From a virus (taxonomy: Duplodnaviria; Caudoviricetes): a stretch of DNA of 54,150 nt. The translations under genes and the position numbers were made by a program. The stretch covers positions 1-54,150 of IMG/VR virus record IMGVR_UViG_3300027752_000024, one strand, 5' to 3'. Below, one piece after another: positions 20,506-36,996 of the stretch. Each line of letters opens with the position of its first letter. The first letter of the stretch is position 1. Under the pieces are notes generated by a model that saw nothing but the letters and a program-made list of their open reading frames with translations, did not search any database and was not told where the DNA came from.

Positions 20506-20666
20506 AACTGCTCCGGTTCCATTCCTAGTGATTCATGAAAGTCAAATACTTTGTACCCTTTTAACATATACATTGTAGCACACTTAGGCGTACAGAGCAA
20601 GATCTTATTGTACGTTTGCTCGCCTTGTACCCATTTTTCTATACTATATAATCTGTGTTCTACCAT
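20469..20666 (-). CDS. Hypothetical protein
   Basis: 65-aa ORF filling the gap, overlapping both neighbours. Confidence 0.4.
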   Translation of the reverse strand: MVEHRLYSIEKWVQGEQTYNKILLCTPKCATMYMLKGYKVFDFHESLGMEPEQLCEHSHKILSNV

Positions 20667-21424
20667 TTGCCTTCAAAACTTTCCTTGGATAACTTAACTC
20701 GATCAAACTTGTCATCAAGCAAGTATACTGTACTTGTTTGTTGTTTGTTGTACAATAGTTGTAACTTTAAAAATATTTGGTTATGTTGACTTGTACTTAA
20801 ATGGCCGCTCCGCACATCGTTTTCTAATGTAATACTACTTTCCGGATCATTGAAACTAAAATAAGACAGCGTAGGATACATTGTTGTTCCACTTTTAAAA
20901 ATATGTCCAATGTATTGATCTTCCTTACTGCTAAGATTTGCATATTTGTTGTTGTATAGCCCTGGAAAACAATAAAAGTGCCAAAACAGTCTGTCTGGGA
21001 AGTTGTCTGCAAGATACTCATCAAACCATTGTAATACTCCGGTTAACTGTATATTAGAAAGGTCTTCTCTATAAAAATGAGAATAATATTCTTTGGCTGC
21101 GTGTCTAACTTTTTCAACTAACGGATATGTTGTAAACTTTCTAAACGCTCGACCATCGTTGATTATAGTTGTGTTAATAACAGGAACTTTGTGATGATAT
21201 ATTCTACTAGCTTCGCTCCAACATGTTATCATCATGTCAAACTTGCCACCATTGTTTAAATATTCAAAAAACTGTTCAACAACATATATAGGCCCTGCGC
21301 CGTCTTTTGCTAACATAACTACTTCTAAGTTAAACTTATCTGCAAGTTGTCCTATCCATGTTGTTTTATGAGTGTGGGCATAACTGTCCCCTAACACTAG
21401 TAATATTTTTTTATCTAGTCCCAT
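20660..21424 (-). CDS. Hypothetical protein, SGNH/GDSL hydrolase-like
   Basis: N-terminal LVLGDSYA and C-terminal GHLS..QH. Confidence 0.55.
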   Translation of the reverse strand: MGLDKKILLVLGDSYAHTHKTTWIGQLADKFNLEVVMLAKDGAGPIYVVEQFFEYLNNGGKFDMMITCWSEASRIYHHKVPVINTTIINDGRAFRKFTTYPLVEKVRHAAKEYYSHFYREDLSNIQLTGVLQWFDEYLADNFPDRLFWHFYCFPGLYNNKYANLSSKEDQYIGHIFKSGTTMYPTLSYFSFNDPESSITLENDVRSGHLSTSQHNQIFLKLQLLYNKQQTSTVYLLDDKFDRVKLSKESFEGKW

Positions 21425-22041
21425 AGGTTTTCAAAATATTTTCCAAACAGTTTAAATCCGTTTGTCATTCGTTCCTGATGTGCGTTCATGCCATCACGGT
21501 CAATCCATTCAAAACTACCAGCCATCGGCCCATTCTTTTGATCTTCAACATAGTCGCCATAATAATCATCTTGCCAATCATCACGACACTTTTGTTCAAA
21601 CGCCCAGATCATTTCATCCATGACCCAGTCCCAACGTTCGAAGTGCTTAGGATCTACATCGCCGGCGTTTGCATACTTGTTCTGTTGTGCTTTGGTAGCA
21701 CGTAATTCTTTTGGTGCATCTTCCATGTCAACCCAGGGAGCACCGTGTTTAGTAGCTTTTAGTTGTACAAGCATAGGCAAGATAATAGGAGCAAGAGTAG
21801 AGTCCATACTCCAAGTATCCCAACGATCAATCTTTACCTTAACTTTTTGTGTACGTCTGTCAAACCAAATCCAGTTGAATACATCATACACCCTTTGTAC
21901 ACCGTCTTCAATAACTTCTATCACATGATCTTCATAATCTTGATTGTCTGGCCAATCAACAATGCCGTACTTTTTATTCATATGGTTACTGTGTATATTG
22001 CAAATTAATCTATTAGGATATCCGCCAATCTTGACTTTCAT
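21415..22041 (-). CDS. Hypothetical phage protein
   Basis: Trp/Asp-rich ORF. ATGA coupling with the upstream gene supports a start at 22041. Confidence 0.65.
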   Translation of the reverse strand: MKVKIGGYPNRLICNIHSNHMNKKYGIVDWPDNQDYEDHVIEVIEDGVQRVYDVFNWIWFDRRTQKVKVKIDRWDTWSMDSTLAPIILPMLVQLKATKHGAPWVDMEDAPKELRATKAQQNKYANAGDVDPKHFERWDWVMDEMIWAFEQKCRDDWQDDYYGDYVEDQKNGPMAGSFEWIDRDGMNAHQERMTNGFKLFGKYFENLWD

Positions 22042-22364
22042 GTGATAATCCAATCCATATTCATCCAGTCTGTATCTTCTGGCATCATCTCAACTTTGTC
22101 GCCGTGCAGTTCTTGCATTCGTGCCCAGATATGGGCATTGTTCATTCTCAGCGTGTAAGAGCCTTTACCACAACGATATGTGCTACCACTAGAACCAGAG
22201 AAATAATAAGCCCCTTCGCTCTCTTCCACCTTTGTAATGCCACTGTTCATACGCCAACTGTCGCCATCTAAGTAACCGCCAGATGTTCCAACAAGAAGAC
22301 GATAGTGAGGATCATCGCCTTTCATCTTGATAACTACCCAGTTGTCGCAAGTATATTCAAACAT
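22038..22364 (-). CDS. Hypothetical phage protein
   Basis: DNWVVIK..GGYLDGDSWRMNSGI..GSSGSTY.C, a motif I recognise from large myophage hypotheticals. Confidence 0.7.
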   Translation of the reverse strand: MFEYTCDNWVVIKMKGDDPHYRLLVGTSGGYLDGDSWRMNSGITKVEESEGAYYFSGSSGSTYRCGKGSYTLRMNNAHIWARMQELHGDKVEMMPEDTDWMNMDWIIT

Positions 22365-22521
22365 TTTGTTTATCCTTTAAGAATAACTTTAGTGTTTGGC
22401 CGTCATCTTGGATACTAATTTGCACACCTGTTACATCGTGCTTAACAAGTTCTCGACCGTGGGTGCCAATTACTTCTACTCGGGTAATTCGGCTATACGG
22501 AATTAAATCAGTTTCATTCAT
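22357..22521 (-). CDS. Small hypothetical protein (54 aa)
   Basis: Manual translation MNETDLIPYSRITRVEVIGTHGRELVKHDVTGVQISIQDDGQTLKLFLKDKQNV. Fills the gap and overlaps both neighbours. Confidence 0.6.
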   Translation of the reverse strand: MNETDLIPYSRITRVEVIGTHGRELVKHDVTGVQISIQDDGQTLKLFLKDKQNV

Positions 22522-22714: not shown

Positions 22715-22893
22715 TCTAAGTCTTCCTCAATCCATTTTATTTTTGCAATAGTGTATTCGTCGACGCCCCATTTTTCAGGAGCACCGTATTTTACAATAGT
22801 TTTAGCAAGTGCTTCACTTTCTTCTTTAGCATATTCATAGCCTAGGAAGTTTGTATCTGCGCTTACCATCCATGTGCGTTCATATGCAAACAT
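22711..22893 (-). CDS. Hypothetical protein
   Basis: ORF coupled to the upstream gene (TAATG), with GAGG RBS. Confidence 0.55.
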   Translation of the reverse strand: MFAYERTWMVSADTNFLGYEYAKEESEALAKTIVKYGAPEKWGVDEYTIAKIKWIEEDLE

Positions 22894-23417
22894 TAGTTAG
22901 TCCTCAATTCTTCGATGTTAACAGGTGTGTAGTTTGTTTGCTCGACGCACACACAACGATACGGTCCTTCTGGACTTGGGTTCTGGTGTATGTGACCGTG
23001 AACGTTCACCATACTACCTTCACCAAACCTGTGACTCTCCTTTAGTGTACTCTGGTGTACAGGAACGTGTGTTAGTAGTAACCCAAACTCACTAAAGTCT
23101 CTCCACATACTTACCTTTTGGAAGTGTGGAGCAAGTACTTTGATGTTGTCGTGGTTGCCAACAACCAAACGCTTCTTGCCATTGAGTCTCTTGAAGTTAT
23201 CGTTTAGCCACTTGTCTTTATCAAGTCCAAACAGTACGTCACCCAAGTGGTAGACTTTGTCTTGAGGTTTAACAACACTGTTCCAGTTTGCAATCATGGT
23301 TTCATCCATGTCTTCAACATCAGCAAAGTCTCTACAAGGCTTACCCACTTTATCCTCAAACTTCAAGATATTATCGTGGTTAAAGTGTGTGTCGCTTATT
23401 ACCCAGATATCTGCCAT
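22893..23417 (-). CDS. Calcineurin-like metallophosphoesterase
   Basis: SDTHFNH, HLGD, GNHD, THVP and HGHIH motifs. Confidence 0.9.
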   Translation of the reverse strand: MADIWVISDTHFNHDNILKFEDKVGKPCRDFADVEDMDETMIANWNSVVKPQDKVYHLGDVLFGLDKDKWLNDNFKRLNGKKRLVVGNHDNIKVLAPHFQKVSMWRDFSEFGLLLTHVPVHQSTLKESHRFGEGSMVNVHGHIHQNPSPEGPYRCVCVEQTNYTPVNIEELRTN

Positions 23418-23444: not shown

Positions 23445-23472
23445 AGTATAACATACTAGCTGTTGTTGTCAA
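23445..23472 (-). promoter_or_regulatory. Sigma70-like promoter
   Basis: TTGACA-N16-TATACT. Confidence 0.6.
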
Positions 23473-23473
23473 C

Positions 23474-24811
23474 CTAGAAGTAGTCTTTGATCCACGGTAT
23501 ATAATCGTGAATATCAATCTTTCTAAACTTGTCACTGGCATTAGTATTGTCTATAAAGTGTTGCCAGTGTGTTTCGTTTTGTGGTTGATTGAGAACATTT
23601 TTTAAGTTAATAATATTATCAACTGCCCATTGTTCCCAGTCTCGTAAATCTGCATTTTTAAACTTCAAGTGTTGTTCTTCAAGCATTGTATTCATTAATG
23701 CTTTACGGTCGTCTGGTAGATTACATATGTGCAAGTGTTGTGGATGATCTACAATATTAAAATGTGGCAAACAATTCTGATATCCGTGTACACCCCAATC
23801 CCATTCGTAGTTCCAACTAGTATACTGGTCTTGACACCATTGTAAAATATTAGGTAAATCGTGTAGATTCATCAAACTAAGTGTAACATGCGTGTGTACT
23901 TTAACACCAGTACGAGTTTTACTAAACTCAGCGAGCTTAAACATATTTTTTTCAATAACACGCCATTTGGTAGGAAATCTAACATAATGTGCAAGGTCGC
24001 CAATTGCGTCAATACTTAAACTAAGTACAACACCTTTAAACTTATCCCAAATCTTTAACAGCCTGTCTGGTATAGTAGTAGCATTTGTGTTGTAGTGCAG
24101 TTCTATATGTTTGCTCCAACCCTGATCAATGATGTGTTCTAACCAAGCGTAGTGTTCTTCAACAACCAGCGGCTCTCCACCAATAAAGTTAATAACTCTT
24201 ACATTTGGCAATACTTCATCAAAGAACCCTTCTTCAAATGCTTTAATAAACCAAGGCTTATCACTGCTCATTTTAGCAATCATATATGCTGTTTCGTCCC
24301 AATCAGTATGAGGTACTGTTGGGCCTTCTTCAATCCATCTATGACTTGCCCATGGGTTACAACTGCGGCATTTTAAGTTACAAATATTTCCTAAGCTGAT
24401 ATCTAAATATGTAACAGCTTGTGGATCTAAGCGTCCGTCATCATCAACATGCTTTAAAGTTGTATCAGTGTGATCTTCGTATATCTCATTCCATGTTTGT
24501 CTGAAACTACGGATGCCTTGATCCTCTAATTCAAAACAACCTTTACAACCTTTGGGTATTTCATTGTTGAGTAGTTTTTTACGTATTTCCATAGCTGTTG
24601 GATCATTTATAAAATCACCAATGTCAGGACTATTCCAGTTGTTGTGTTCTTTCCAATAAGGAACAGAATCTACATCAACTCCTGGCATGTAACTGTTAGT
24701 TTCAATACGACTAAAACAACAAGGACGAGTGCGTCCATGTGAATGTGTGCTGTAACCTTGCATACTAAGGTAACAAAAGTTTTTTGGCAGGTTATCTGAT
24801 TTTGTTTGCAT
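23474..24811 (-). CDS. Radical SAM protein with N-terminal twitch/SPASM-like domain
   Basis: N-terminal C..PCC..CKGC, then CNLKCRSC (CxxxCxxC), GGEP, YNTN and SIDA. Start moved to MQTK. Confidence 0.9.
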   Translation of the reverse strand: MQTKSDNLPKNFCYLSMQGYSTHSHGRTRPCCFSRIETNSYMPGVDVDSVPYWKEHNNWNSPDIGDFINDPTAMEIRKKLLNNEIPKGCKGCFELEDQGIRSFRQTWNEIYEDHTDTTLKHVDDDGRLDPQAVTYLDISLGNICNLKCRSCNPWASHRWIEEGPTVPHTDWDETAYMIAKMSSDKPWFIKAFEEGFFDEVLPNVRVINFIGGEPLVVEEHYAWLEHIIDQGWSKHIELHYNTNATTIPDRLLKIWDKFKGVVLSLSIDAIGDLAHYVRFPTKWRVIEKNMFKLAEFSKTRTGVKVHTHVTLSLMNLHDLPNILQWCQDQYTSWNYEWDWGVHGYQNCLPHFNIVDHPQHLHICNLPDDRKALMNTMLEEQHLKFKNADLRDWEQWAVDNIINLKNVLNQPQNETHWQHFIDNTNASDKFRKIDIHDYIPWIKDYF

Positions 24812-25784
24812 ATTCTGGCCTTGCTTTGCTGATATTAAAGTCTGCTGCACAATGACAATGTGTCTTAGGACACCAAACACCTTCGCTCATTGTAGTATTA
24901 AACTCGCCTTGTACAATATTGCCCAACAGTGGGCCAACGCCACAACTGGCTTGTTGAATACGTCCATTAGGATGAATGTGTAAACTTTCGTGTATATTGC
25001 ACAACCAGCCCTTAAAGAAGTTCTTACCGTTTGTAATGATACCGTTTGTATCAATAGCTTCTATGGTGTCATCTTCATACTGTACTTTTGCCCAAGCATA
25101 ACTTGGATCTTTTTTAATAGGAATACTCTGTTGCTGCACTGTACTATTTGTTTTAAAGAAATCCATTTTCCATTGTTCTTCATAATGATACGGATCTGTG
25201 CTAGGACGTAGCTCGTCATAAACCGGTGCATACTCAATCATATAGTTGTCGCACTCATTTTTTATTCTGTCGCCAAATGCCATGCACTGTTCAAAATGAT
25301 CGTGATGCATCATAATACGACTACACAAATAGTTTTTCTTATCTTGCAAGAACTTGTAAACATCCATGTACTTGTCGTCTTTGCTCCATTCTGCGTGATA
25401 GCTGGCAACAACATCTTCAAACAAGTGATGATGATCCTTCCACCAGCTTAGTGGCTTACTAAAGTTGGTGTTGATACCTACACAACTGCCAGGCCATTCT
25501 GCATGTTCTCTAAACTTTTCTACAACAGGAATAAGTCCTTTCCAAAATGTAGGTTCGCCGCCGCTGAGGTACAGTTTAAAATATTTGTAGCCTTTGGCCT
25601 TGTAATGAAGCATGATACGTTCTAATGTGTTAACAATAGTATCTATGTCAGTGTCGTTTTTGTTACGGCCTGCCCAGTTCCATTCACTACAATATGTACA
25701 GCGAAAGTTACACCAATCATTTACTTGCCACACAATACTGACCCATTTGTCCTTTGCTGGCAGGATTGCTTTTATATCTTGCAT
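24792..25784 (-). CDS. Radical SAM protein with C-terminal Cys-rich (SPASM-like) domain
   Basis: CNFRCTYC, SGGEP, INTN. C-terminal GWLC..SC..CPKTHCHCAAD. Confidence 0.9.
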   Translation of the reverse strand: MQDIKAILPAKDKWVSIVWQVNDWCNFRCTYCSEWNWAGRNKNDTDIDTIVNTLERIMLHYKAKGYKYFKLYLSGGEPTFWKGLIPVVEKFREHAEWPGSCVGINTNFSKPLSWWKDHHHLFEDVVASYHAEWSKDDKYMDVYKFLQDKKNYLCSRIMMHHDHFEQCMAFGDRIKNECDNYMIEYAPVYDELRPSTDPYHYEEQWKMDFFKTNSTVQQQSIPIKKDPSYAWAKVQYEDDTIEAIDTNGIITNGKNFFKGWLCNIHESLHIHPNGRIQQASCGVGPLLGNIVQGEFNTTMSEGVWCPKTHCHCAADFNISKARPEYANKIR

Positions 25785-26980
25785 TCGTTTTCCAATATGT
25801 AATCTAATGTTGGGAATATATCACCAAACTTGTATTTGCGATATCTATCGTTAATACTAATAAACTGCTTCATCCGTGTTATGTTCTCTTCAGAATATTT
25901 ATTAGTATTCTGTGTGTAGTTAATGATTCGCGAAACTGCATCGTTGTGTAGTTTGCTGTTTATTATTTTTAAGTTGTCTATTACTTTGTGTCGTATTTCT
26001 TTGGGCCATACACAACTATGAATTTGGTCAGGGTGTTCTAAGAATATAGGTACAAAGTCTATACGCCGTGTTTGTGTGTCTTCTAGCCAACGTATCAGTG
26101 GAGCAACATCAAATACATTCCATGCCTGGTATACAAAGTAAATCTTTAGTTGTACTTTTTCAGGTAGACGCTGTGCTTTTGCAAAGTTTTCTTCTACTTT
26201 TTTCCAATCAGTTGGATAACGTATGTATTGGTTGTGTTCGCCAAATCCGTCAATGCTCATCTGTATTTCACTTGCATCAAAGAAGTCTAGTTTATCGTAA
26301 AACCCTTCTGGCCATGTTGTCATATTAGTGGTCCATGCAACATAGCATTTGTTGTTGCCAGCGGAAACAAGGGCGTCAAGCACGTACTGATTGGCTTGTA
26401 TTAAGGTTGGTTCACCCCCAGTTAGGTAAAGACGCTCTAACGTAGGTGCTACGCAGTCTACGAAGTCTTTAAACTCTTGAGTCTCGTACCATGCCCAATC
26501 GTGTTCCTCTACACTTTTAATCTCGTGTTGCCACTGATCATTTAGCCATTTAGGAACAGTTTCATTTGCAAGGATTTTCTTACGTTCTTTGTAGATATTA
26601 TCACTGCTCACACTCCAGCAACTATTGCATTTTAAGTTACAATGATTGCCCAATCGTAGTTCTAAGTGTGTAGGGTTGCCGTGAGTTACAGATGCATGAT
26701 AGGTTTTGTTGGCCCACTGCCTGCTGCTTTCTAAACCTTTTTCTTCGTGTTCGTAGCAGCGATTACATTCTTTAACTTTGCCACCACCCAGCATCTTTGC
26801 ACGAACATCCAGCATGTATTGCCCGTTCCAAATGTTCCACCAGTCAGTTTTACCTAGTACAGCATCTTTGCCATCTACTTGAATATAGTCTTCACTGTAT
26901 ACATGACAGCATAGTTTACATCTACCATCGGTGTTGGTGTGTACGTTTATAAACGGGTATACGCAATACGAATCACTCAT
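25772..26980 (-). CDS. Radical SAM protein with N-terminal twitch/SPASM-like domain
   Basis: CVYPF..LCC..CNRC, CNLKCNSC, TGGEP, TTN, SIDG. Start moved to MSDSY. Confidence 0.9.
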   Translation of the reverse strand: MSDSYCVYPFINVHTNTDGRCKLCCHVYSEDYIQVDGKDAVLGKTDWWNIWNGQYMLDVRAKMLGGGKVKECNRCYEHEEKGLESSRQWANKTYHASVTHGNPTHLELRLGNHCNLKCNSCWSVSSDNIYKERKKILANETVPKWLNDQWQHEIKSVEEHDWAWYETQEFKDFVDCVAPTLERLYLTGGEPTLIQANQYVLDALVSAGNNKCYVAWTTNMTTWPEGFYDKLDFFDASEIQMSIDGFGEHNQYIRYPTDWKKVEENFAKAQRLPEKVQLKIYFVYQAWNVFDVAPLIRWLEDTQTRRIDFVPIFLEHPDQIHSCVWPKEIRHKVIDNLKIINSKLHNDAVSRIINYTQNTNKYSEENITRMKQFISINDRYRKYKFGDIFPTLDYILENECKI

Positions 26981-29132
26981 TCCATTCTCCATTTCCTTGC
27001 CATGCATATTTAAAGCTAAAGTCTGTATTACGTGTATACAAAAACTCTTGTTCGTGTTCGCGGAACACATCTGGATCGTGAGCATTTGTAGGATCTCTAG
27101 ATGCTTTTTCAGTGCCTTTCCACGCTAACTTACGAGCTCTAATAGCTGCATTACTGTTGTCTCTTGTAAAGTCCATGATACTCCAAACTGGGCTATTACC
27201 GTCTGGACTTACATGTGTAACTCCGTTGTGTTCCCAGTATGTATCATTCCAATCGTTGTATGGATCTTGTTGATAATCCCATTTAAAATCCGCAGTCCAC
27301 ACACCATCATCTGTTATTTCAAATATATAGTCTGCATCCAACGGTGCAGCATTGCGGCCACCCCATTCTTGATATTCCCATTCTTTACGGAACTTTAAAT
27401 GCAACTTATACCCGCCTTTGGTGCGCCATAAAATACGCAAGAATGGCCAAATCTCATTTACTAAACTGTCAGCAAAGTTACTAATGTACGGCTTGATAAT
27501 ATTATAGTTAAAATCATCATAGTCGTACTCAATGTCTAGTTCTTTGTCTGGATTATCAAATGTAACCTCGTAATGAAACTTTGCTAAGTTTGGTCTAGTA
27601 GGTTTAGAACATGCTTTTTCTGTATTCAGCAAATCTGTAAAAATACTAAAGGACTTCATACGAATAAGTTTGTGTACAATACTCATTTTAAAGTCTTTTG
27701 TAATCCAGTGATCGTAATAGTAAAATGGACTTAGGTTAAATTTGTCTAAGTTTTGTCCTACAATAGTATCAACACCAACACTAAATCCTGTACCCTGACT
27801 AATAGCAATAAGTCCTTGATTGCGCACACGATACATAAATGTAAGAGTGTCTTCTAGTTCTTTAGGACCTTCATTGGGATAGCCAACAATCCAGTTGGTC
27901 ATTGCATCAATACCAGCAGCATAGCCATCACGGAAGTTTGCTTCCATTTCTGCCACAGTAACTTTTTTGTCCATTGCATCTAATACAACTTGACTTCCGC
28001 TTTCAATACCGTAGTTGAGTACTTCACAGCCTCCTGCTTTTAAATCCTTGTAATACTCTGCATCCATTCTGCCATCACAACGGCAGTAGCCAGTCCAATG
28101 TATATCCAGTTCTTTTTCTGCAACACCTTTTACAAACCCACGTAGCTCGTTGAGATTGCCATTGACTAAACTGTCAATAAACCAAAACACATTAGTACCA
28201 TGTTCGTAATACATGTGTTCAATCTCATCAAGTGTACTAAGTGCATTACGTTGTCTGTATTTCCAAAAGTGTGTTTCTTCGCAGAACGTACACTTTGCAA
28301 TACAGCCTCTTGATATCTCACACAATGCACCGTTTGGAAACTTGTACTTACTAAAGTCAAAATCACTGTAATCAGGCAACGGTAGTGTACTCAAGTTATA
28401 ACGCTGATTTTCAGGTTGTCTAATAATCTTACTTACAGCATTTTCTGTGTACTCGATGGATTTGTTATTTTCAATGTTTTCTAGTGCAAGCAACAACGGC
28501 TGTTCGCCTTCGCCGTTTACTACATAATCAAATAGGTCGCAGCCTTTGTAAAAACTAGCATGAGTACTCGGTCCTCCAACAATAATAGTCACAGTTGGCA
28601 AACGTTTTTTTAACTCTGCTGCCATATACTTTGTTGGTACTTCGTTGCAGTAGTACAATGTAAATCCAATCACATCAGGATTAAATGCAACAATCTCATC
28701 TAGCTTTTCATCCAGTAATGGTCTTAGATGAGGATGGATATCATCATAGTAGTTGTCTTCTAACCAATGCCAGTCACGTAGACTATCCCATGGATTAAAC
28801 TCTATAGGCCACTGCTCATCGTTGAATCGGCTGTATGCATCCACATTAATGTCAAAACTCTTACATGCATATCCTGCACGTTTTACAGCACTAGCAAGTT
28901 TTGCTGTGTTGTAAGGTGGAAAGTTAGGATCCCACTCTGGTAGTAATCCTAAACATACACGAGTCTTACGATTAACACTGTATTCAATCTCAAGATTGTC
29001 TAGTCCTTTTTGTACTGGTTTGCTATACTTTGCAATAACAGCTAATGTAGCTGTGTGCTTGTCTTCAGCAAGTGTGCCTGTAGGACGTTCCGGTGCTTGT
29101 CTATCTGGATCTGTATTTTCATAAAATCCCAT
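26973..29132 (-). CDS. Cobalamin-binding radical SAM protein (class B methyltransferase-like)
   Basis: N-terminal B12-binding features (PDVIGFT, IIVGGP, GEGE), then SRGCIAKCTFC, GIESGSQVVL..M.K and IVGYPNE. Confidence 0.9.
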   Translation of the reverse strand: MGFYENTDPDRQAPERPTGTLAEDKHTATLAVIAKYSKPVQKGLDNLEIEYSVNRKTRVCLGLLPEWDPNFPPYNTAKLASAVKRAGYACKSFDINVDAYSRFNDEQWPIEFNPWDSLRDWHWLEDNYYDDIHPHLRPLLDEKLDEIVAFNPDVIGFTLYYCNEVPTKYMAAELKKRLPTVTIIVGGPSTHASFYKGCDLFDYVVNGEGEQPLLLALENIENNKSIEYTENAVSKIIRQPENQRYNLSTLPLPDYSDFDFSKYKFPNGALCEISRGCIAKCTFCEETHFWKYRQRNALSTLDEIEHMYYEHGTNVFWFIDSLVNGNLNELRGFVKGVAEKELDIHWTGYCRCDGRMDAEYYKDLKAGGCEVLNYGIESGSQVVLDAMDKKVTVAEMEANFRDGYAAGIDAMTNWIVGYPNEGPKELEDTLTFMYRVRNQGLIAISQGTGFSVGVDTIVGQNLDKFNLSPFYYYDHWITKDFKMSIVHKLIRMKSFSIFTDLLNTEKACSKPTRPNLAKFHYEVTFDNPDKELDIEYDYDDFNYNIIKPYISNFADSLVNEIWPFLRILWRTKGGYKLHLKFRKEWEYQEWGGRNAAPLDADYIFEITDDGVWTADFKWDYQQDPYNDWNDTYWEHNGVTHVSPDGNSPVWSIMDFTRDNSNAAIRARKLAWKGTEKASRDPTNAHDPDVFREHEQEFLYTRNTDFSFKYAWQGNGEWNE

Positions 29133-30340
29133 TACCAGATTCCGTCTAGTTCAGGAAACACATCCAGTAAACTTTCTTGCCGCAATCTATCGATACGCTG
29201 TGTTTTAAACTTAAACATTTTTATTTCATCTGTGCGATCTTTTTCCATAAAGTTTAAAATACTCTCGTAATCGCTAATAACTGATTTAATATTGTCAAAC
29301 TGTTTTAAGTAAGAAATGTGTTCTGCATATCTTTTTGCTACTTGAGATTTAATCCACGGCGGCAATATACTCAATCTCATGTAAGAAGGATCCAATAAAA
29401 TGTTGATGCGAATGTTCTGCGGTTCTAGTAATCCTTCTTCTATCCATTCTTTGTGGAAATCAGGTAGGTTAAGCACGTTGTACACGCTTACAGTAGGCGT
29501 TAGCTCAAAATATACGTGTGGACACTGCTCAATCATATCTCTACGGTTTTGCACCACCTGTGACCATACCATGTTCTTACGCAAGTATTCACCGCGAGCA
29601 TGATTTGCATCCAAGCTACCGGCCACTCTTACGTGTTCAAACTTGTTCCAGTATTCAAATGCTGTTTTGTTTTTGTAATACATTTGTGTAAAGTTAGTGG
29701 TGTAATCCATTTTAACATCGTGCTTGCCCATGGCAATCCACTTGTCAAGTATACGATAGTGCTCTTGTGTAATCAACGGTTCGCCACCTGCCCAGTATAC
29801 TCTTTCAACACTGTCCAGCAATGGCTCAAGTTCGTCCATAAAGTTTAACATATCGTCACGCACTTTTAGTATCTTGCCATGCGGCAGTTCACCGTATATT
29901 GCTTTATGATCTTCAAACCAGCTACTACTAAACTGTGGCCCGCAACTACGACACTTTAAGTTACAAAGGTTACTAAAGCGTATGTCCATGTATGCCATGT
30001 TTACATCACCAGCACTGCCGTCGTCGCTTGTGCTTTCAACTTTGTCCCAATGATGCATATAGTTTTCTATACTGCTGTTACGCAGTGTACTCATACCGTT
30101 GTCTTCTAGTTCATAGCAACGTCTACATTCTTTGCTGGGCGTGTCTTCCAACATGTTAAGACGCAACTGCCGCATTTCTGGGCCGTTCCAAATGTCTTGC
30201 AATGTTTGATCTTGTGTATTTCCTACAGGATGATCTGGATCACTCATGCAGCAAGGATATGTAGTTCCAGCAGGCCACAAATGCATGTGCGTCCACGGCA
30301 TCATGCAAAAATGCTTGCTTTGTTTTAAATCGTTAGACAT
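29132..30340 (-). CDS. Radical SAM protein with N-terminal twitch/SPASM-like domain
   Basis: CMMPW..PCC..CRRC, CNLKCRSC, AGGEP, YTTN. Confidence 0.9.
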   Translation of the reverse strand: MSNDLKQSKHFCMMPWTHMHLWPAGTTYPCCMSDPDHPVGNTQDQTLQDIWNGPEMRQLRLNMLEDTPSKECRRCYELEDNGMSTLRNSSIENYMHHWDKVESTSDDGSAGDVNMAYMDIRFSNLCNLKCRSCGPQFSSSWFEDHKAIYGELPHGKILKVRDDMLNFMDELEPLLDSVERVYWAGGEPLITQEHYRILDKWIAMGKHDVKMDYTTNFTQMYYKNKTAFEYWNKFEHVRVAGSLDANHARGEYLRKNMVWSQVVQNRRDMIEQCPHVYFELTPTVSVYNVLNLPDFHKEWIEEGLLEPQNIRINILLDPSYMRLSILPPWIKSQVAKRYAEHISYLKQFDNIKSVISDYESILNFMEKDRTDEIKMFKFKTQRIDRLRQESLLDVFPELDGIW

Positions 30341-31544
30341 ATAAATCCTTTAGCTCTGGAAACACGTTGAGAAAGTTTTCTCCACGTTTCAGATCCATTT
30401 TCTGCATCTCCATCCTAAAAGCTGGAATCAAGTTGCTGTCATCACTATTGTACATGAAGTTTATAATATTGTCAATACCTTCATGTAGAAACTGTTTGCG
30501 CTGTGGATACATGTCTATTGCATCAATGTCCTGTTTTAACAACACCAAATTTTCTTTTGCAATGTCTTTTAAGTGTGCAGGTAATATTGTTATACTCAGC
30601 CAGTCTGGCCCGACTAATAGGTTGCTGAGATTGATATCGTAGTCGGTGGGTATGTTGTGTTCAAACAAGAAGTTAATAATCTTACGCAAGTCTAATATGT
30701 TTAATACACTGATAGTAGGATTAGGTTGTATGATTACACCTTTGTCATAACTGTGTTCAAAGTTATCACGTATCCAGCACAAGTTATCAAATACTGTACT
30801 CCACTTTTGTCCATTGCGTGTGTACTCGGCTTTGGCACCAATTTGGTCACAGCTTACACAGAAGAATATCTTATCAAAATGCTGCCAATACTTTTGTATG
30901 TGCTTGCCTTTTAAACTTAATCTACTGGCGTTACTGTTGTATGTTAATCTCGGTTTGAGTCCACGCTCTATAAGCATATCTAGCAGTCTGTAATGCTGCT
31001 CCATAAACAGGCTTTCGCCGCCAGTAAAATAAACTTCTTCAATAGTGGGCAACATTTCTTCAATCTCAGCCCACATTGCTGGATGATTGATTTCAACAAC
31101 TTCAGGCTTGCCAACAGTGTCTTCTGCCCACTTGCTGCTGAAATGAGGCCCACAACTACGACACTTCATGTTGCATAGATTACTAAACCTTACATCAAAG
31201 TATGCAAGATTCATTTGTTCTACACTACCATCATCGGCTGTTGTTTCTACTATGTCGTAATGATGGTCGTATTCGGTGTTGAACTTGTGTCTGTAACTGA
31301 TAATACCCTGGTCGTCATAGTTGGTACACTTTTTACATCCTTCGCTTGGTTCGTTGTTTAACATACGCATACGCAAGTCACGCATCTTTTCACTGTTCCA
31401 AGCACCTTTGAACCCAGCTTCGTTGATGTTACCAGTGGGCATATCCCAGTGATATATACAACAAGGATACGCATCGCCGTTTTGCCATACGCTCATGTGT
31501 GTCCATGGAGCCATACAAAAATGTTTTTTAAATTCTCTACTCAA
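30333..31544 (-). CDS. Radical SAM protein with N-terminal twitch/SPASM-like domain
   Basis: CMAPW..PCC..CKKC, CNMKCRSC, TGGES, YNSN. Confidence 0.9.
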   Translation of the reverse strand: MSREFKKHFCMAPWTHMSVWQNGDAYPCCIYHWDMPTGNINEAGFKGAWNSEKMRDLRMRMLNNEPSEGCKKCTNYDDQGIISYRHKFNTEYDHHYDIVETTADDGSVEQMNLAYFDVRFSNLCNMKCRSCGPHFSSKWAEDTVGKPEVVEINHPAMWAEIEEMLPTIEEVYFTGGESLFMEQHYRLLDMLIERGLKPRLTYNSNASRLSLKGKHIQKYWQHFDKIFFCVSCDQIGAKAEYTRNGQKWSTVFDNLCWIRDNFEHSYDKGVIIQPNPTISVLNILDLRKIINFLFEHNIPTDYDINLSNLLVGPDWLSITILPAHLKDIAKENLVLLKQDIDAIDMYPQRKQFLHEGIDNIINFMYNSDDSNLIPAFRMEMQKMDLKRGENFLNVFPELKDLYV

Positions 31545-32721
31545 TGTTGACTACTGCTTCTATAAGATTGTCTGTTATGTCATTCCAACTAATCTTACGT
31601 GAAAGGAACAACTGTTGGTTATGTAATAATTTATCATAATATTTTCGTCTGACGGTCCGTTTTAATACATCAATGTCATAGTTTTTAATATGTTTCCACA
31701 TTGCTTGTGCTTCAACAAAATTTGTAACTTTGTTAACACCGAACAAGTCTTCAAACGTATGATACCCACGTTCTCGTAATAGTTCGTGCTGCTGCGGATT
31801 ACCTATAATAAAGAATGGATGTAGATTCATAATAGCTTTATAAGTTTTTTCTGTTATAAAGTTTTTATGAGTGTCGCTTTCTGTAACTACACTTAATATA
31901 CTATCTTCGTAATATGGTTTAATGCTGTCGCCATAGTTGATAACAAACTGCGTGTGCAATGTATCTAACTTTCTTGGACGCATTTCTCTAAGAAGTGCTA
32001 ACTTATAATCTTTATGCAACTCTTCAGGAATACGATCTATTACAGAATGTCTACGAGCAACATCTTCAAACTCACGGCGACCCACAGCAGGCAAGTTAAA
32101 GCTAACATGTCCTTCGTCTAATACATCACTTCTTAACAAACTATACATCAACCATATACGATGTGGTTTGATATTTCTATTCAAACACAGAAACTTTTTA
32201 GTTGCTGCTCTAACAGTAGGTTTACTAGTAAATGAGATATCAGGAAGTACTTGGTGGTGTAGTCTAGTAATACTTTCCCAAAAGTTAACACTAACATACT
32301 TTACACCATGTATTATCCTATTGTGAGCATCTCTGTCGCTGCACATTACAACAACTTTGTGTAATGGTATGTTTTTACTTCTAAGCTCTTGTTCTAGTTT
32401 GTCCGGTGACATTCTACATTCCAGCACACTTGACAAACATAGATATACACTAGGATCGTTGTTTAATAAATCAATACTGGCTTGTGAAATATGTATGTCT
32501 GTGTTTCCAGGCATGTGAATATGATCAAAAATAAACTTAGGGACGTTTGCTGGCAATAGACTTAGTTGGTTTATATGGAAGAAGTTTCGGAATGAGAAGT
32601 CGTCCCAGTGTCCAAGAAGGTAACTTAGCTGGATAGATCCGTTGTTATGTCCAAAAGTCAGTGTAACATCACCGTGTGGTGATGGAAACACATTATCTAA
32701 TAAAAAATAGCATTTATACAT
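31537..32721 (-). CDS. Hypothetical protein, possibly a GT-B fold glycosyltransferase (GT10-like C-terminus)
   Basis: KKFLCLNR..KPHR and VVTES..FITEKTYKAI..HPFFIIG, which resembles the fucosyltransferase-type ITEK motif. Confidence 0.55.
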   Translation of the reverse strand: MYKCYFLLDNVFPSPHGDVTLTFGHNNGSIQLSYLLGHWDDFSFRNFFHINQLSLLPANVPKFIFDHIHMPGNTDIHISQASIDLLNNDPSVYLCLSSVLECRMSPDKLEQELRSKNIPLHKVVVMCSDRDAHNRIIHGVKYVSVNFWESITRLHHQVLPDISFTSKPTVRAATKKFLCLNRNIKPHRIWLMYSLLRSDVLDEGHVSFNLPAVGRREFEDVARRHSVIDRIPEELHKDYKLALLREMRPRKLDTLHTQFVINYGDSIKPYYEDSILSVVTESDTHKNFITEKTYKAIMNLHPFFIIGNPQQHELLRERGYHTFEDLFGVNKVTNFVEAQAMWKHIKNYDIDVLKRTVRRKYYDKLLHNQQLFLSRKISWNDITDNLIEAVVNIE

Positions 32722-32727
32722 TCTTAT

Positions 32728-32756
32728 ATAATACTACAGATTTTATTTTTTAGCAA
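32728..32756 (-). promoter_or_regulatory. Sigma70-like promoter for the radical SAM operon, probably giving leaderless mRNA
   Basis: TTGCTA-N17-TATTAT. The ATG lies only 6 nt downstream of the -10 element, with no SD. Confidence 0.5.
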
Positions 32757-33330
32757 GAAGTTTTTCGCGGTGTGGATCTAAATACTTTTTAACTAGATCA
32801 AAGAATGTTACATTCTCGCCTGGAATATCAACTACAGTATCAGCAGGAACGCCTGCTGCTTTGCCAAATGCTTCTGGATTGTCATCTAACACTGCTTGAC
32901 GGAGATCAGTAGCACTTGCAAGTCTTGGGGGCTTTACCCATTCTATGTCTTTGAAGTTGTAACTACCGTGCGGGCCTTCTGCACCATTATACTGTTGTAT
33001 AGTTTTAGGAACCCATGCTTCGTCTGTGTAAAGTTTTAATGTAGCATCAGGATGCTTTGCATATAGCTCACTAGCAAGTGTTAGCCAACTTTGGCTGAAT
33101 ACAATATGTCCTTTTACTTCAGGCCAAATAGTTTCCATTGCAACAACTTTTGCTTGCGCTGGCAATGGATCTTTAGGACCAACTGTGCTTTGATTAGTAC
33201 CTACATACCAGTGTGTTTCTCGGCTAGCCATTTCCCACGCATTTTTGTGACCTTTGTGTGGAGGATTAAATCTTCCAAATATAAGTCCTACACTTTCGCC
33301 TGGTGCTTCAAATAGTTGTCTTAGTCTCAT
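32743..33330 (-). CDS. HIGH-motif nucleotidyltransferase (cytidyltransferase/NMNAT-like)
   Basis: FGRFNPPHKGH, KDPLP and SATDLR motifs. Start moved to MRLRQLFE (ATGA coupling). Confidence 0.8.
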   Translation of the reverse strand: MRLRQLFEAPGESVGLIFGRFNPPHKGHKNAWEMASRETHWYVGTNQSTVGPKDPLPAQAKVVAMETIWPEVKGHIVFSQSWLTLASELYAKHPDATLKLYTDEAWVPKTIQQYNGAEGPHGSYNFKDIEWVKPPRLASATDLRQAVLDDNPEAFGKAAGVPADTVVDIPGENVTFFDLVKKYLDPHREKLLAKK

Positions 33331-34454
33331 GCCGGTGTCCACCTTTTTCTTGGAACAAGTTTTACGTTGCCAAACTTTTTATTAGGGTCTGCATAACGTA
33401 CCCGGCCTTCACCGTTGGTATCCCAAATGTCACCTTGTTCACCTTCTACTTGATCAATAACTTCGTCTTTCATACGCTGAATCATTTTAACTAGTTCAAA
33501 TATTGCACTTGTTGCACCTTTGTACTGTAAATCTATCTCTGCAATCTTTGCTTGTTTTCCTACACTAACTTTACTATTTTGTAGCCAAGCAGAAAAGTCT
33601 TTTGCACTCAAACTATCCAAACGTTTTGCTTTTGCAGTTTGGTTAACATATGTGTAAATAATATTCTTTAAATCAGCAAGTCCAGGAACGCCTGCTAAAA
33701 ATCCATCAATGGCTGCTTTATTCTGTGATACAAAGTTTTCCACAGCATCAATCGCCCCTGTATTAACAGCGACCGGTTTACTGTTATAAACTGGACCTAA
33801 TACAACAATACTAGGATCATTATCAAACATACTAAAGTCTTGCATAGGCTGTTGACTACTATCTGGCATACCGAACTGTGGGAAGAAAGCGTGTCCGACT
33901 ATCATAATAGTAGCACGGTCTATACGCTTGCCTAGATCACTGTTTGCTTTAACATGGTAGCATGTTTGTGAGTTAGGATTTGGACAGAATGTATATACTC
34001 CATCTTTTTGTTCAGGCGGATCTAAAAATAATCCATCTGCATAAACAAACCCTACAAAGTCTCTCGGAGTTGCTCTATCAAAATAATCATACATACTTGC
34101 AAACTTTTGCGCAAACTGGTCTCTTGCTGTTTTTTCTTCTGGTGTCTTAGGATTGCCACTTTTGTTAGAAATAAAGTCCGCCACTTCTTCTTGACTGGTA
34201 GCCGCTACACCCTTACTCCATGCGTTGTGTCCTGCAAGTATAAGCGGTCCACCTTTGCGCTCACGGCCCCAATATATTTGAGGATTGCCATCCCACTTCA
34301 TACGTATACTTTGGCTTCCGCTATCTGTAGCAATGTCTTTGAGATGTTCTAATGCTTCAATAGTACCGTCACTACCGTAAAAAAATACCAAGTCTTCTAA
34401 ATGGTTAAATGCGCGGCCAAGTTGTTTGGTTTCGAGTAGTTCTTGGTATCTCAT
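33327..34454 (-). CDS. Phage protein with KxDG motif (DUF6267-like; possibly ligase/capping-type nucleotidyltransferase fold)
   Basis: NHLEDL, MKWDGNPQIYWG, EGRV and KLVPR resemble motifs I, IV and V of covalent nucleotidyltransferases. Confidence 0.65.
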   Translation of the reverse strand: MRYQELLETKQLGRAFNHLEDLVFFYGSDGTIEALEHLKDIATDSGSQSIRMKWDGNPQIYWGRERKGGPLILAGHNAWSKGVAATSQEEVADFISNKSGNPKTPEEKTARDQFAQKFASMYDYFDRATPRDFVGFVYADGLFLDPPEQKDGVYTFCPNPNSQTCYHVKANSDLGKRIDRATIMIVGHAFFPQFGMPDSSQQPMQDFSMFDNDPSIVVLGPVYNSKPVAVNTGAIDAVENFVSQNKAAIDGFLAGVPGLADLKNIIYTYVNQTAKAKRLDSLSAKDFSAWLQNSKVSVGKQAKIAEIDLQYKGATSAIFELVKMIQRMKDEVIDQVEGEQGDIWDTNGEGRVRYADPNKKFGNVKLVPRKRWTPA

Positions 34455-35185
34455 CTAGTCATTGCCCTCATTAGTTCAACTAATCTATTGTGATTTTTAT
34501 CAGCTAGTGATTCGGCTACTTTGGTCCAGTTAGGATCTTGCTCTGCACGTTGGAGTGCTTGCTCAGGATTAGGAACTTTCTTTAATATAGTTTCTACACT
34601 TTCTAAGTCACTAGCACTGGCGCTGCTGCTGAGTATAAGTTGTGCAACTTTGTTAACATCGTTTGTAAGAAGTTGTGCTTTTTTACCATTTTCGTCCTTG
34701 GCAAATAATCCTTGGAACGCACTCCAAAACATATTCTTATCTTTGGCAAGCATATACAATAGTAACTGTTTGTGTTTGCCTTTGTAAGGACTACCTGTTG
34801 GAATGTTGTGTGTATGAAACTGTGCTACACTGCTTGCACCCGGCACAACCATAATATCAACTTGATGGCTGTTGTTGCCGGCTTTGGCTCTTACGTGTAC
34901 GTTAACACCTTTTTGTGCTGTTTCAAAGCCTTTTTGTGCAATGTAGTCATTGAGCATTCTACGTGCATCTTTTGGAGTACGCACATCAAAATAATCCATT
35001 ACTGCTGCTTCGTCAACAATAACATCTAAGTCGCCACTTGTTTTACCTGGAGTTGGAGTTGCTGCACTACCTACAGGAATAGCTTCAATGCCTGTTCCTT
35101 CTAGACTGCTGTTAACTGTTTTAAGAATCTCTTCGATTGCACTGTGATCAAAATCACTGGTGCCCTGAAACACATTACCACCCAT
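34451..35185 (-). CDS. Pol-beta superfamily nucleotidyltransferase-like protein
   Basis: MGGNVF start, VGS..SGDLDVIVD (GS...DxD) and QVDIM (third Asp). Confidence 0.65.
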   Translation of the reverse strand: MGGNVFQGTSDFDHSAIEEILKTVNSSLEGTGIEAIPVGSAATPTPGKTSGDLDVIVDEAAVMDYFDVRTPKDARRMLNDYIAQKGFETAQKGVNVHVRAKAGNNSHQVDIMVVPGASSVAQFHTHNIPTGSPYKGKHKQLLLYMLAKDKNMFWSAFQGLFAKDENGKKAQLLTNDVNKVAQLILSSSASASDLESVETILKKVPNPEQALQRAEQDPNWTKVAESLADKNHNRLVELMRAMTR

Positions 35186-35189
35186 AGTA

Positions 35190-35669
35190 TTAACTCCTTG
35201 ATAATGTATTTAGTATCTTTTGCTTAACATCATCGTAAGACTCGTCTTTGATACTTAGCTTAAACAGTATACGATCTTCTGTGCTGTTGTCAACCGAATG
35301 TTTGATACTGGTGTTTAATAATGCTGTGGTATAGTAGTATTCATTCTTGCCAAAGTTTACAGGTGCAGGGTTGCCACTTAACAAGAAGTTGATGCTGCAA
35401 GTTGTATCTTGATCTATGTGAGGAAGTAGAGTTGTATTAGCATGTAATATATAAAACTTTGATACTGCATTGATATTAAAATGTCTTGCTAACGTATCTG
35501 CATATGCTAACTCAATATCGGTTACTATACGCCAGTTGTTCATAGCATACTTGCCAAAGCGTTTGTCGGTGTACGGCATGGAATGTTGTTTGTGTTCGTT
35601 CCAATAGTCTAACAAACATTGTTTGTCAAAATCAAAATTAAAAACTAATATGTCATTGTTGTTTATCAC
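35190..35669 (-). CDS. 2OG-Fe(II)/cupin-like oxygenase
   Basis: LLPHIDQD (HxD), SINF, KHSVDN and R motifs. Confidence 0.55.
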   Translation of the reverse strand: MINNNDILVFNFDFDKQCLLDYWNEHKQHSMPYTDKRFGKYAMNNWRIVTDIELAYADTLARHFNINAVSKFYILHANTTLLPHIDQDTTCSINFLLSGNPAPVNFGKNEYYYTTALLNTSIKHSVDNSTEDRILFKLSIKDESYDDVKQKILNTLSRS

Positions 35670-35896
35670 GACTTTTTGATTGTCCTATGCATACCTTCTG
35701 GCGAATGAATAGCATTGATAAGATCGTTAAACATATCTGTTGATATTTCAAGTATACTGTGTATTTCAAGTTCGTTGTCGTACTGACGTATATAAACAAC
35801 ATCATCAAACGCATCAATAATTAAATCGTCGTATAGACCAGTTTCGTCCATTACAGTAATAGTTGTTAAGTCGTGATCAAACTCATTTGTAAACAT
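35666..35896 (-). CDS. Hypothetical acidic protein
   Basis: 76-aa ORF overlapping both neighbours. Confidence 0.55.
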   Translation of the reverse strand: MFTNEFDHDLTTITVMDETGLYDDLIIDAFDDVVYIRQYDNELEIHSILEISTDMFNDLINAIHSPEGMHRTIKKS

Positions 35897-36881: not shown

Positions 36882-36903
36882 AAAAATACTTATCAACTTG
36901 ATT

Positions 36904-36991: not shown

Positions 36992-36996
36992 TAGTT

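Follow-up and report, generated by a model that had tools for sequence, protein, structure and literature searches.

What does a bacteriophage do with six radical S-adenosylmethionine (SAM) enzymes encoded back to back? Radical SAM enzymes perform some of biology's hardest reactions, and the question is raised by an IMG/VR virus record of 54,150 bases (IMGVR_UViG_3300027752_000024), which we analyzed over its full length and refer to here as the window. At 23474–32721 its minus strand holds a run of seven back-to-back genes, six for radical SAM enzymes headed by one for a glycosyltransferase-like protein, as a sequence-only reading of this DNA had described. This radical SAM array is a real, conserved and widespread phage gene system that is functionally unexplained, and its parts come from known enzyme superfamilies. 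The genome that hosts it is that of an uncultured marine T4-like giant phage. PHROG matches to the two subunits of topoisomerase II, to an ATP-dependent DNA ligase, an endonuclease and a DNA methyltransferase, and to tail-fiber proteins are those of a T4-like myovirus. The record is an estimated ∼14% complete, which puts the whole genome at several hundred kilobases. The topoisomerase II of the window is no more than 35–38% identical to that of any isolate in a set of 50,697 phage records, and a nucleotide search of the 9.3-kb operon region against the same records gave no match.

The array and its enzymes

The seven genes lie among topoisomerase II, DNA ligase and DNA methyltransferase genes, ∼13 kb away from the tail fiber. 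Coordinates and predicted products are as follows, with lengths in amino acids (aa) and, where two ends are given, with the longest open reading frame (ORF) in brackets.

g1, 31537–32721, minus strand: 394 aa, glycosyltransferase-like protein of GT-B fold, from a virus-dominated family without a Pfam model
g2, 30333–31544, minus strand: 403 aa, N-terminal-twitch radical SAM enzyme, CX3CX2C at C124
g3, 29132–30340, minus strand: 402 aa, N-terminal-twitch radical SAM enzyme, CX3CX2C at C126
g4, 26973–29132, minus strand: 719 aa, B12-binding radical SAM enzyme of class B type, CX3CX2C at C277
g5, 25772–26992 (longest ORF to 27085), minus strand: ∼406 aa, N-terminal-twitch radical SAM enzyme, CX3CX2C at C149 of the long ORF
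g6, 24792–25784, minus strand: 330 aa, small radical SAM enzyme with a C-terminal Cys cluster, CX3CX2C at C25
g7, 23474–24811 (longest ORF to 24880), minus strand: ∼445 aa, N-terminal-twitch radical SAM enzyme, CX3CX2C at C167 of the long ORF

With the longest starts, each gene overlaps the next by 8, 8, 1, 113, 13 and 89 nt in succession, so that the claim of seven consecutive, overlapping genes is borne out. The likelier starts shrink the g4/g5 overlap from 113 to 8–20 nt and the g6/g7 overlap from 89 to 20 nt, for an overall range of 1–20 nt. The start of g5 is probably 26992 or 26980, since the long ORF enters the family match only at residue 37, and the probable start of g7 is at 24811. 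One CX3CX2C motif is present in each of six of the seven genes (g2–g7), in agreement with the earlier statement that all cluster-binding cysteines are intact.

The limits of the operon are less clear than had been proposed. A single upstream TTGCTA/TATTAT promoter was thought to drive the seven genes, and the motif is indeed present (TTGCTA-17-TATTAT, 32756–32728 on the minus strand, 9/12 matches). It ends 6 nt before the ATG of g1, however, such motifs occur at chance frequency (44 observed versus 48.8 ± 7.7 expected in shuffles) and the gene block runs from 35669 down to 23474 with no gap larger than 21 bp. A single promoter defining a seven-gene operon is therefore not established, and the seven-gene boundary is arbitrary, with functionally linked genes lying outside it (g8, a trio at 39699–42199 and a DUF6071-like gene at 20660–21424, all described below). 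The best promoter-like match of the region is found at 23445–23472 on the minus strand (TTGACA-16-TATACT with an upstream TG, 11/12), between g7 and a phosphoesterase gene at 22893–23417, a position compatible with the radical SAM transcription unit ending there. Short contigs from metatranscriptome libraries X1–X3 cover parts of g1–g3 and g5–g7 at 90–100% identity and a depth of ∼1–7, some of them across gene junctions. We do not take these contigs as evidence of expression, because DNA carry-over is possible and contigs cannot show a transcript; stretches without contigs, such as most of g4, are equally uninformative.

Four of the radical SAM proteins (g2, g3, g5 and g7) have the N-terminal C..CC..CxxC domain ahead of CxxxCxxC that was noticed from the sequence. 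The invariant cysteines common to the four are C12, C30, C31, C72 and C75 together with the C126/130/133 triad (g3 numbering), giving an N-terminal ligand set of C-x17-CC-x40-C-x2-C before CX3CX2C in each paralog. Among 35 viral and bacterial members there is no variation at C12, C30, C72, C75 or the triad, and almost none at C31. The idea that these enzymes constitute an undescribed family has to be given up, as all four match the whole 398-position NCBIfam model NF033640, ‘twitch domain-containing radical SAM protein’ (N_Twi_rSAM), at 404.0 bits for g3, 362.8 for g2, 325.1 for g7 and 295.0 for g5, against a cut-off of 170. NF033640 is a catalogued, functionally uncharacterized family, found here as a fixed four-paralog phage array; g6 (24.4 bits) and the related g8 (30.9 bits) fall below its cut-off. 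Pfam SPASM matches cover residues 12–76 of g3 and 10–74 of g2.

An AF2 model of g3 has a mean predicted local distance difference test score (pLDDT) of 94.5 and places the radical SAM core at about residues 113–371. Residues 10–82 align by sequence to the twitch domain of BtrN (chain positions 169–240, E 0.02), and the core of the N-twitch enzymes aligns by sequence to viperin (E 3e-7). Like BtrN, anSME, BlsE and DesII, the N-twitch enzymes combine a partial TIM-barrel core with an auxiliary domain bearing a Cys-ligated cluster, but here the auxiliary domain stands before the radical SAM core rather than after it, and identity to these enzymes is 10–19%. Reductive SAM cleavage on a [4Fe-4S] cluster is the activity predicted from motifs and folds.

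The 719-aa protein with a B12-binding domain is g4. Its PF02310 domain (residues 141–213; 36.8 bits, cut-off 32.1) precedes PF04055 (residues 272–432; 51.4 bits), which is the domain order of the class B radical SAM methylases (TIGR03975, ApyD, PhpK, BchE and CysS). It differs from these in two respects: its scores against the specific families are 84–97 bits for cut-offs of 281–750, and it has an additional C-terminal extension of ∼280 aa that is without any family match in Pfam or NCBIfam. All 22 specific NCBIfam models listed gave scores below cut-off, the best being the C-methyltransferase TIGR03975 (97.1 versus 281.85 bits), which acts on ribosomally synthesized and post-translationally modified peptides (RiPPs), followed by ApyD (95 versus 750) and PhpK (94 versus 600). 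Matches to PDB sequences include 9ccb (E 7.7e-5) and CysS (E 0.004), and the sole match of the protein in the 50,697 phage records is a partial one in Streptomyces phage SF3.

The radical SAM protein described as having a C-terminal Cys-rich domain is g6, with C-terminal cysteines at 262, 281, 305, 310 and 312. It matches phrog_13987 (E 4e-12) and has no protein match in the 50,697 phage records; its look-alikes in the atlas searched are viral radical SAM clusters, one of which has SPASM in 15% of its members. The additional radical SAM gene reported at 35883 also exists:

g8, 35883–36896, minus strand: 337 aa, radical SAM protein (PF04055 36.1 bits), directly downstream of an array of 11 tRNA genes

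It is a full-length paralog of g6 (23% identity over 319 aa, E 2.5e-20). The adjoining tRNA genes lie at 36904–39275 on the minus strand (Ser, Trp, Asp, Glu, Pro, Leu, Thr, Gly, Met, Ser-ACU and Asn), and loose ends of RNA-library contigs at this array resemble tRNA sequences of other organisms.

The head gene is glycosyltransferase-like, as had been suggested, by its predicted structure. Searches with g1 against Pfam, NCBIfam, PHROGs and PDB sequences gave nothing meaningful, and its relatives are almost all viral. An AF2 model built from an alignment with 38 relatives (pLDDT 92.9) has a GT-B fold, and its Foldseek matches in the PDB are all GT-B enzymes, with a probability of 1.0 to SdgB, OtsA, GT4, fucosyltransferase and T4 β-glucosyltransferase (BGT). 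Structural alignment with VIA gives Z 9.6–12.4 over 256–307 residues for the 50 GT-B and related entries listed, the top entries being tied: Helicobacter pylori α1,3-fucosyltransferase (2nzx, Z 12.4), T4 BGT (1j39, Z 11.6) and T4 α-glucosyltransferase (AGT; Z 10.9). In BFVD the nearest folds belong to uncharacterized phage proteins, of which one carries a fused UDP-glucose/GDP-mannose dehydrogenase domain, and a cyanophage ‘DNA α-GT’ is also among the matches. The fused relative, taken by itself, is suggestive of a putative nucleotide-sugar-dependent transferase. E291-K292, within ‘ITEK’, are invariant across the family and resemble a motif of the α1,3-fucosyltransferases. Assignment to the GT10 fucosyltransferases was rejected, with PF00852 matching 0/39 family members at E ≤ 5 and nothing in the window at E ≤ 10. 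Among close relatives g1 diverges faster (38–65% identity) than the radical SAM genes (68–95%), as expected of a transferase with a variable acceptor and conserved donor chemistry.

Conservation and partner genes

Twenty-two IMG/VR viral contigs found through the B12 enzyme g4 served to examine synteny. The order g1–g7 is identical in 17 of the 22 (g7 being cut by the contig end in one), three contigs are colinear up to the contig end and two have a variant order. Gene order, which the sequence-only reading had named as a check, is thus conserved, in support of one functional unit. In two distant relatives, with a B12 enzyme 56% identical to g4, the B12 gene is preceded by four N-twitch genes and followed by a g6-like gene, another N-twitch gene and then a 389-aa protein that is a g1 homolog (hhalign probability 98.2%, E 2.7e-14). 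Further downstream come a sugar epimerase/dehydratase of the NAD-dependent type (PF01370, E 1e-31), present in L026, and an O-methyltransferase of TylF type (E 3e-29).

The tail of the operon is variable. In the close relatives L013 (15642–18781), L023 (15623–21191) and L027 (16273–17331), 2–5 kb of extra overlapping genes lie between g7 and the phosphoesterase gene; they include one or two DUF6071 proteins and have no counterpart at this place in the window. In L033, a contig of a Halobacteriovorax metagenome-assembled genome (MAG), positions 5502–13486 encode an N-twitch enzyme, a g6-like protein, two further N-twitch enzymes and then a B12 radical SAM enzyme 48% identical to g4; this cluster reflects either the transfer of a cassette or viral sequence placed in the bin of a predatory bacterium.

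When IMG/VR was scanned with 35 aligned family members, at least 586 viral relatives were found, and the locus counts given here are for the best 80 of these, those most similar to g3. At least two N-twitch copies are present in 80/80 loci and at least three in 77/80 (3–8 paralogs, mode 5–6). Genes of the g1 family occur in 57 of the loci, often several and interleaved with the array, g6-like genes in 22 and B12 radical SAM genes in 14. A corresponding scan in which each prokaryotic species was represented by one genome gave 167 relatives; 79 distinct loci were kept from the best 80 matches, mostly of Bdellovibrionota, with at least two copies in 57, at least three in 34, a single copy in 21, g6-like genes in 20 and B12 genes in three. 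Copy number ranges from 2 to 8 per viral locus and from 1 to 9 per bacterial locus. The only isolates with more than one N-twitch-like gene are Vibrio phages K566/K567, which have four, and Ralstonia phage RsoM2USA, and the neighborhoods in RsoM2USA and K566 consist almost entirely of hypothetical proteins.

Are the paralogs recent duplicates of one another? They are 25–38% identical to g3, consistent with the divergence remarked on earlier. We constructed a quick maximum-likelihood tree of 101 N-twitch proteins from 14 of the 80 viral loci (leaving out ORFs outside 330–520 aa in these), the window, L013, L026 and five bacterial loci. The paralogs of one array fall in different deep subfamilies, and each groups with orthologs of other phages at the same array position (support 100 for the g5 clade, 100 for g2 with L118 and L013, 99 for g3 with L118 and L013, and 100 for g7 with L013). 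The arrays are thus old, fixed sets and not recent expansions, and the distribution of paralogs over different old subfamilies indicates non-redundant steps. Two Haliscomenobacter MAG loci (L036 and L037), considered as a bacterial cluster of g1 and N-twitch genes, sit on short branches inside clades of viral proteins and probably represent viral or prophage DNA.

Clustering of the other ORFs in the 80 viral loci defined the following partner families.

c1, 62/80 loci: ∼310 aa, the commonest partner; no Pfam, PHROG or PDB match; a DxD motif by inspection only
c2, 55/80 loci: GT8-like; matches the N-terminal half of glycogenin (GT8) in the PDB, E 2.3e-7
c3, 43/80 loci: Gly/Thr/Ser-rich and fiber-like; no Pfam or PHROG assignment
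c4, 43/80 loci: ∼105 aa; no Pfam or PHROG assignment; absent from the window
c5, 34/80 loci: no Pfam or PHROG assignment
c6, 33/80 loci: NodU/CmcH-type carbamoyltransferase
c7, 30/80 loci: tail-fiber-like; C-terminal domain phrog_22593, common with the 2371-aa tail fiber of the window
c8 and c11, 28 and 15 of 80 loci: DUF6071-like
c9, 25/80 loci: ∼116 aa; no Pfam or PHROG assignment; absent from the window
c10, 22/80 loci, within 10 kb of the array: amidinotransferase, often in an operon with g1-family genes

A typical order is c7 c3 c4 c2 c2 c9 c1, the N-twitch/g1 array, c5 c6 and, further on, c10 g1 g1. The tail fiber of the window, a giant protein of 2371 aa at 3408–10523 on the minus strand (phrog_9851, phrog_19602), has the phrog_22593 domain at residues 2215–2364, and this domain recurs in the tail-fiber-like gene that precedes N-twitch arrays of other phages. 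In bacteria, multi-copy loci have genes for UDP-sugar dehydrogenase, carbamoyltransferase, epimerase, asparagine-synthase-type proteins and Asp/Asn hydroxylase.

Some of the partner types are found in the window outside the seven-gene run.

39699–40697, plus strand: amidinotransferase of StrB1/AGAT type (family c10), from a profile with 13 viral relatives against the PDB
40681–41406, plus strand: 2-oxoglutarate (2OG)-Fe(II)-oxygenase-like protein, 241 aa; PF13640 20.5 bits, E 2.8e-5, below the cut-off of 27, whole profile covered
41399–42199, plus strand: class I/II aminotransferase-like protein, 266 aa and short; PF00155 24.9 bits, cut-off 19.7, profile positions 138–250
20660–21424, minus strand: DUF6071-like protein, 254 aa; custom hidden Markov models of partner clusters c8 and c11, E 1.5e-9 and 3.5e-9

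The amidinotransferase profile matches StrB1 (1bwd) at E 1.4e-56 over positions 2–335 of 336 and AGAT at about 1e-40, and HsvA and SxtG are matched as well; PF02274 gives no match, so that detection came from the PDB profile search. H197, D199 and C317 are invariant, a conserved Cys/His/Asp set that is the candidate equivalent of the StrB1 triad. The oxygenase-like and aminotransferase-like proteins have no match among PDB sequences, nor does the latter match the DegT family (PF01041). Members of clusters c8 and c11 match PF19547 (DUF6071).

What the array may make

We propose, tentatively, that g1–g7 are the core of a conserved multi-step line for sugar or glycan tailoring, with a logic like that of aminoglycoside biosynthesis. 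The substrate would most likely be a carbohydrate-type small molecule, such as a nucleotide-activated sugar, a cyclitol or a growing glycan. Each N-twitch and small radical SAM enzyme would catalyze one distinct step by hydrogen abstraction with a 5′-deoxyadenosyl radical, candidate steps being oxidation to a ketone, epimerization, dehydration and C–C chemistry, and the twitch [4Fe-4S] cluster could take up an electron, as in BtrN and anSME. The cobalamin enzyme g4 may transfer a methyl group onto an unactivated carbon. The aminotransferase-like protein and the StrB1-like amidinotransferase would convert keto groups to amino and guanidino groups, the 2OG-oxygenase-like protein may hydroxylate and g1 would pass the finished unit to a lineage-variable acceptor, either a host envelope glycan or a virion or tail-fiber component.

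The carbohydrate assignment is favored because the recurrent partners (GT8-like protein, carbamoyltransferase and amidinotransferase) are sugar or small-molecule enzymes, because the amidinotransferase of the window adjoins the oxygenase-like and aminotransferase-like genes, and because a g1 relative is fused to a UDP-glucose/GDP-mannose dehydrogenase and the bacterial multi-copy loci contain sugar genes. By analogy, a succession of dehydrogenase, aminotransferase and amidinotransferase, with C-methylation, carbamoylation and glycosyl transfer, would resemble aminoglycoside or amino-sugar biosynthesis. The enzyme types that co-occur here and in the aminoglycoside/aminocyclitol pathways (StrB1, BtrN) are twitch radical SAM, aminotransferase-like, amidinotransferase, carbamoyltransferase (in relatives), B12 radical SAM and glycosyltransferases. 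The likeness is one of enzyme class only; no scaffold synthase was found, cyclitol synthase families not having been searched. The sequence-only reading had envisaged a multi-step line acting on a glycan, virion protein or nucleic acid. The old, position-fixed paralogs fit such a line, and the gene context favors a glycan or sugar.

Several observations weigh against the carbohydrate line. No NF033640 member has a known substrate, so that all functions proposed here are inferred from context, and the closest structural neighbors of g3 are tied between sugar-acting (BlsE, Z 12.6; DesII, 11.9) and peptide-acting enzymes (anSME, 12.6; SuiB, 12.3; CteB, 12.2). g1 matches no glycosyltransferase sequence family, glycosyltransferase Pfam models matching 0/39 members of its family at E ≤ 5. 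The window, ∼14% of the genome, is without a nucleoside diphosphate (NDP)-sugar epimerase/dehydratase (PF01370) or a sugar-1-phosphate nucleotidyltransferase (PF00483). The 80 viral loci are not dereplicated and their counts are not independent, and the many phage arrays that directly follow tail-fiber-like genes would fit protein modification equally well. Single-copy bacterial loci have other neighbors, with PhyH dioxygenases the commonest (7/128 ORFs) besides ABC transporters and GT2, and a lone member in Paenibacillus lies in a lipid-type context, a cluster with an acyl carrier protein (ACP)-like gene, a ketoreductase of the short-chain dehydrogenase/reductase (SDR) type, two ketosynthases, an AMP-ligase and GT2.

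The likeliest rival is modification of a protein or peptide, in which the array would cross-link, epimerize or oxidize a tail fiber, another virion protein or a small precursor and the GT-B protein would glycosylate the same protein. We regard this as quite unlikely, but it would account for the peptide-acting neighbors of g3, among which SkfB is a further one, for the RiPP C-methyltransferases among the nearest NCBIfam models of g4 and for the many viral loci in which the Gly/Thr/Ser-rich c3 and the 105-aa and 116-aa proteins, as well as the arrays, follow c7. The eight radical SAM genes of Aeromonas phage 332-Vera likewise lie inside a structural/tail-fiber cluster (PMC12390700). In the window, however, the operon is far from the tail fiber and among DNA-metabolism genes, the 105-aa and 116-aa families are absent and the overlapping genes leave no intergenic room for a precursor gene within the operon. 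No PqqD or RiPP recognition element (RRE)-type domain was found among the Pfam and NCBIfam matches of the proteins, although not every maturase has an RRE, and the recurrent partners point to small molecules or sugars. That same position among topoisomerase II, DNA ligase and DNA methyltransferase genes, with g8 abutting the tRNA array, would suit hypermodification of nucleic acid, a group such as a modified sugar placed on hydroxymethylated bases of the phage DNA, or a group on tRNA, to evade host nucleases. The fold of g1 is as near to T4 BGT and AGT as to any GT-B enzyme, the cyanophage ‘DNA α-GT’ is among its BFVD matches and the N-twitch core is like nucleotide-acting viperin and MoaA, both of them on the sugar- or nucleoside-acting side of the structural neighbors of g3. 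Radical SAM and pyridoxal phosphate (PLP) enzymes are part of known phage thymidine hypermodification pathways. We nonetheless consider it improbable, given that the same arrays occur in bacterial chromosomes, especially of Bdellovibrionota (57/79 loci with at least two copies), that elsewhere they stand beside tail-fiber, GT8-like, carbamoyltransferase and O-methyltransferase genes, a glycan-like context, and that the block, within the 54 kb available, yielded no candidate for a hydroxymethylase, a kinase or a base-exchange enzyme.

Two further alternatives concern the mode of action and the lipid-type context. The similar-sized paralogs could form a hetero-oligomer, one machine for a single reaction, which is compatible with any substrate class. 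The arrays do keep one member of several old subfamilies in fixed order, and translational coupling through the 1–20 nt overlaps would favor equal stoichiometry. On the other hand, the varying copy number and the genomes with a single copy (21/79 bacterial loci) argue that the enzymes act autonomously, and we think a joint machine more improbable still. Tailoring of an acyl chain or glycolipid, as in lipid or polyketide pathways, is the least probable of these readings and would be surprising. It is suggested by the Paenibacillus homolog, by ketosynthase domains in 4/128 neighbors of the single-copy bacterial loci and by the tetraether lipid synthase GDGT-MAS among the structural neighbors of g3, but neither the window nor the partner families that recur in the viral loci showed a gene for an ACP, a ketosynthase or acyl activation.

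A stronger form of the carbohydrate line, which we consider unlikely, is that the phage's own enzymes make a hypermodified amino- or guanidino-sugar or a pseudo-oligosaccharide, attached to tail fibers or the host surface and controlling adsorption or excluding rivals. It would cover large phages of many habitats, with four to six position-conserved N-twitch enzymes, a virus-specific GT-B protein and amidino-, carbamoyl- and methyltransferases. If true, it would add a new class of reactions on carbohydrates to radical SAM chemistry and reveal natural products of a new kind, made by viruses. More generally, the block is probably tied to surface or virion glycans, and hence to host range and superinfection exclusion. 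At 9–20 kb and with a need for iron–sulfur clusters and cobalamin, it points to a costly and widespread biosynthetic investment by large phages. The N-twitch family is abundant, with the at least 586 viral stretches of IMG/VR and the 167 bacterial stretches, and its occurrence here as a fixed set, co-inherited with a transferase specific to viruses and with partners of amino-sugar type, provides a testable handle on its chemistry.

Earlier reports and other genes of the window

We found no paper on the substrate of NF033640, on its N-terminal twitch arrangement or on such a phage system. Clusters of several radical SAM genes in phages had not gone unnoticed but were remarked on, unexplained, in the annotation of Campylobacter phage CP220 and in reports on pelagimyophages (PMC7029224) and Aeromonas phage 332-Vera (PMC12390700). 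In the pelagimyophages, cassettes of radical SAM genes are described together with GT8 and lipopolysaccharide (LPS)-type genes among the tail-fiber genes, in a host-recognition cluster (PMC7029224); the eight genes of 332-Vera in its structural cluster are called ‘highly unusual’ (PMC12390700). For cyanophage S-SCSM2R, an amidinotransferase, a radical SAM gene and an aminotransferase are read as ‘antibiotic synthesis genes’ (PMC12801897). The sequence record of that phage has the amidinotransferase followed by a 2OG oxygenase, the same order as in the window, beside KdsA/KdsB and a glycosyltransferase. As far as their accessible parts go, none of these three reports names a product, recognizes the N-twitch or the g1 family or describes how the array is built. 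The array would explain such scattered mentions of ‘unusually many radical SAM genes’ in phage genomes.

The CP220 cluster is an analog, not an ortholog, of the system in the window. According to its record annotation, this T4-like isolate has at gp080–gp089, near baseplate genes, five radical SAM genes, a possible amidinotransferase and two nucleotide-diphospho-sugar-transferase-like genes, with a sixth radical SAM gene (gp099) 6 kb further on. Its gp086 is 24% identical to the amidinotransferase of the window (E 1e-15). The CP220 radical SAM proteins are short (250–340 aa) with weak core similarity to those of the window (best E 2e-8, to g8), and no N-terminal twitch array, B12 enzyme or g1-family gene was detected in CP220.

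Four genes are packed against g1 at 32743–35669 on the minus strand, again with no gap above 21 bp.

u1, minus strand: 199 aa, nucleotidyltransferase fold (PF01467-like, 19.7 bits, below cut-off; TIGR00125, 25.9 bits)
u2, minus strand: 375 aa, DUF6267 (PF19782, 59.7 bits)
u3, minus strand: 244 aa, no family match in Pfam or PHROG
u4, minus strand: 159 aa, no family match in Pfam or PHROG

For u1 there is no match among PDB sequences, and a nicotinamide mononucleotide (NMN) adenylyltransferase and a sugar-phosphate nucleotidyltransferase are both candidate identities. Candidate assignments of u4 as an Asp/Asn hydroxylase or PhyH protein and of u3 as a pol-β nucleotidyltransferase gave no match. 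In relatives u2 is kept next to the operon; in some of these a peptidoglycan-binding SLT lytic transglycosylase (L023, 4853–5611) lies between the DUF6267 and nucleotidyltransferase-fold genes, upstream of the operon.

Beyond the array, a stretch at 22000–22516 stands out in three marine metatranscriptome libraries. Contig depth there, especially at ∼22288–22364 within an ORF of 108 aa (22038–22364, minus strand), is 65–144, versus ∼1–7 over the operon, and joints and loose ends of contigs are found at 22288 and 22364. This stretch may be a very highly expressed small gene or RNA, or a sequence common to another abundant organism.

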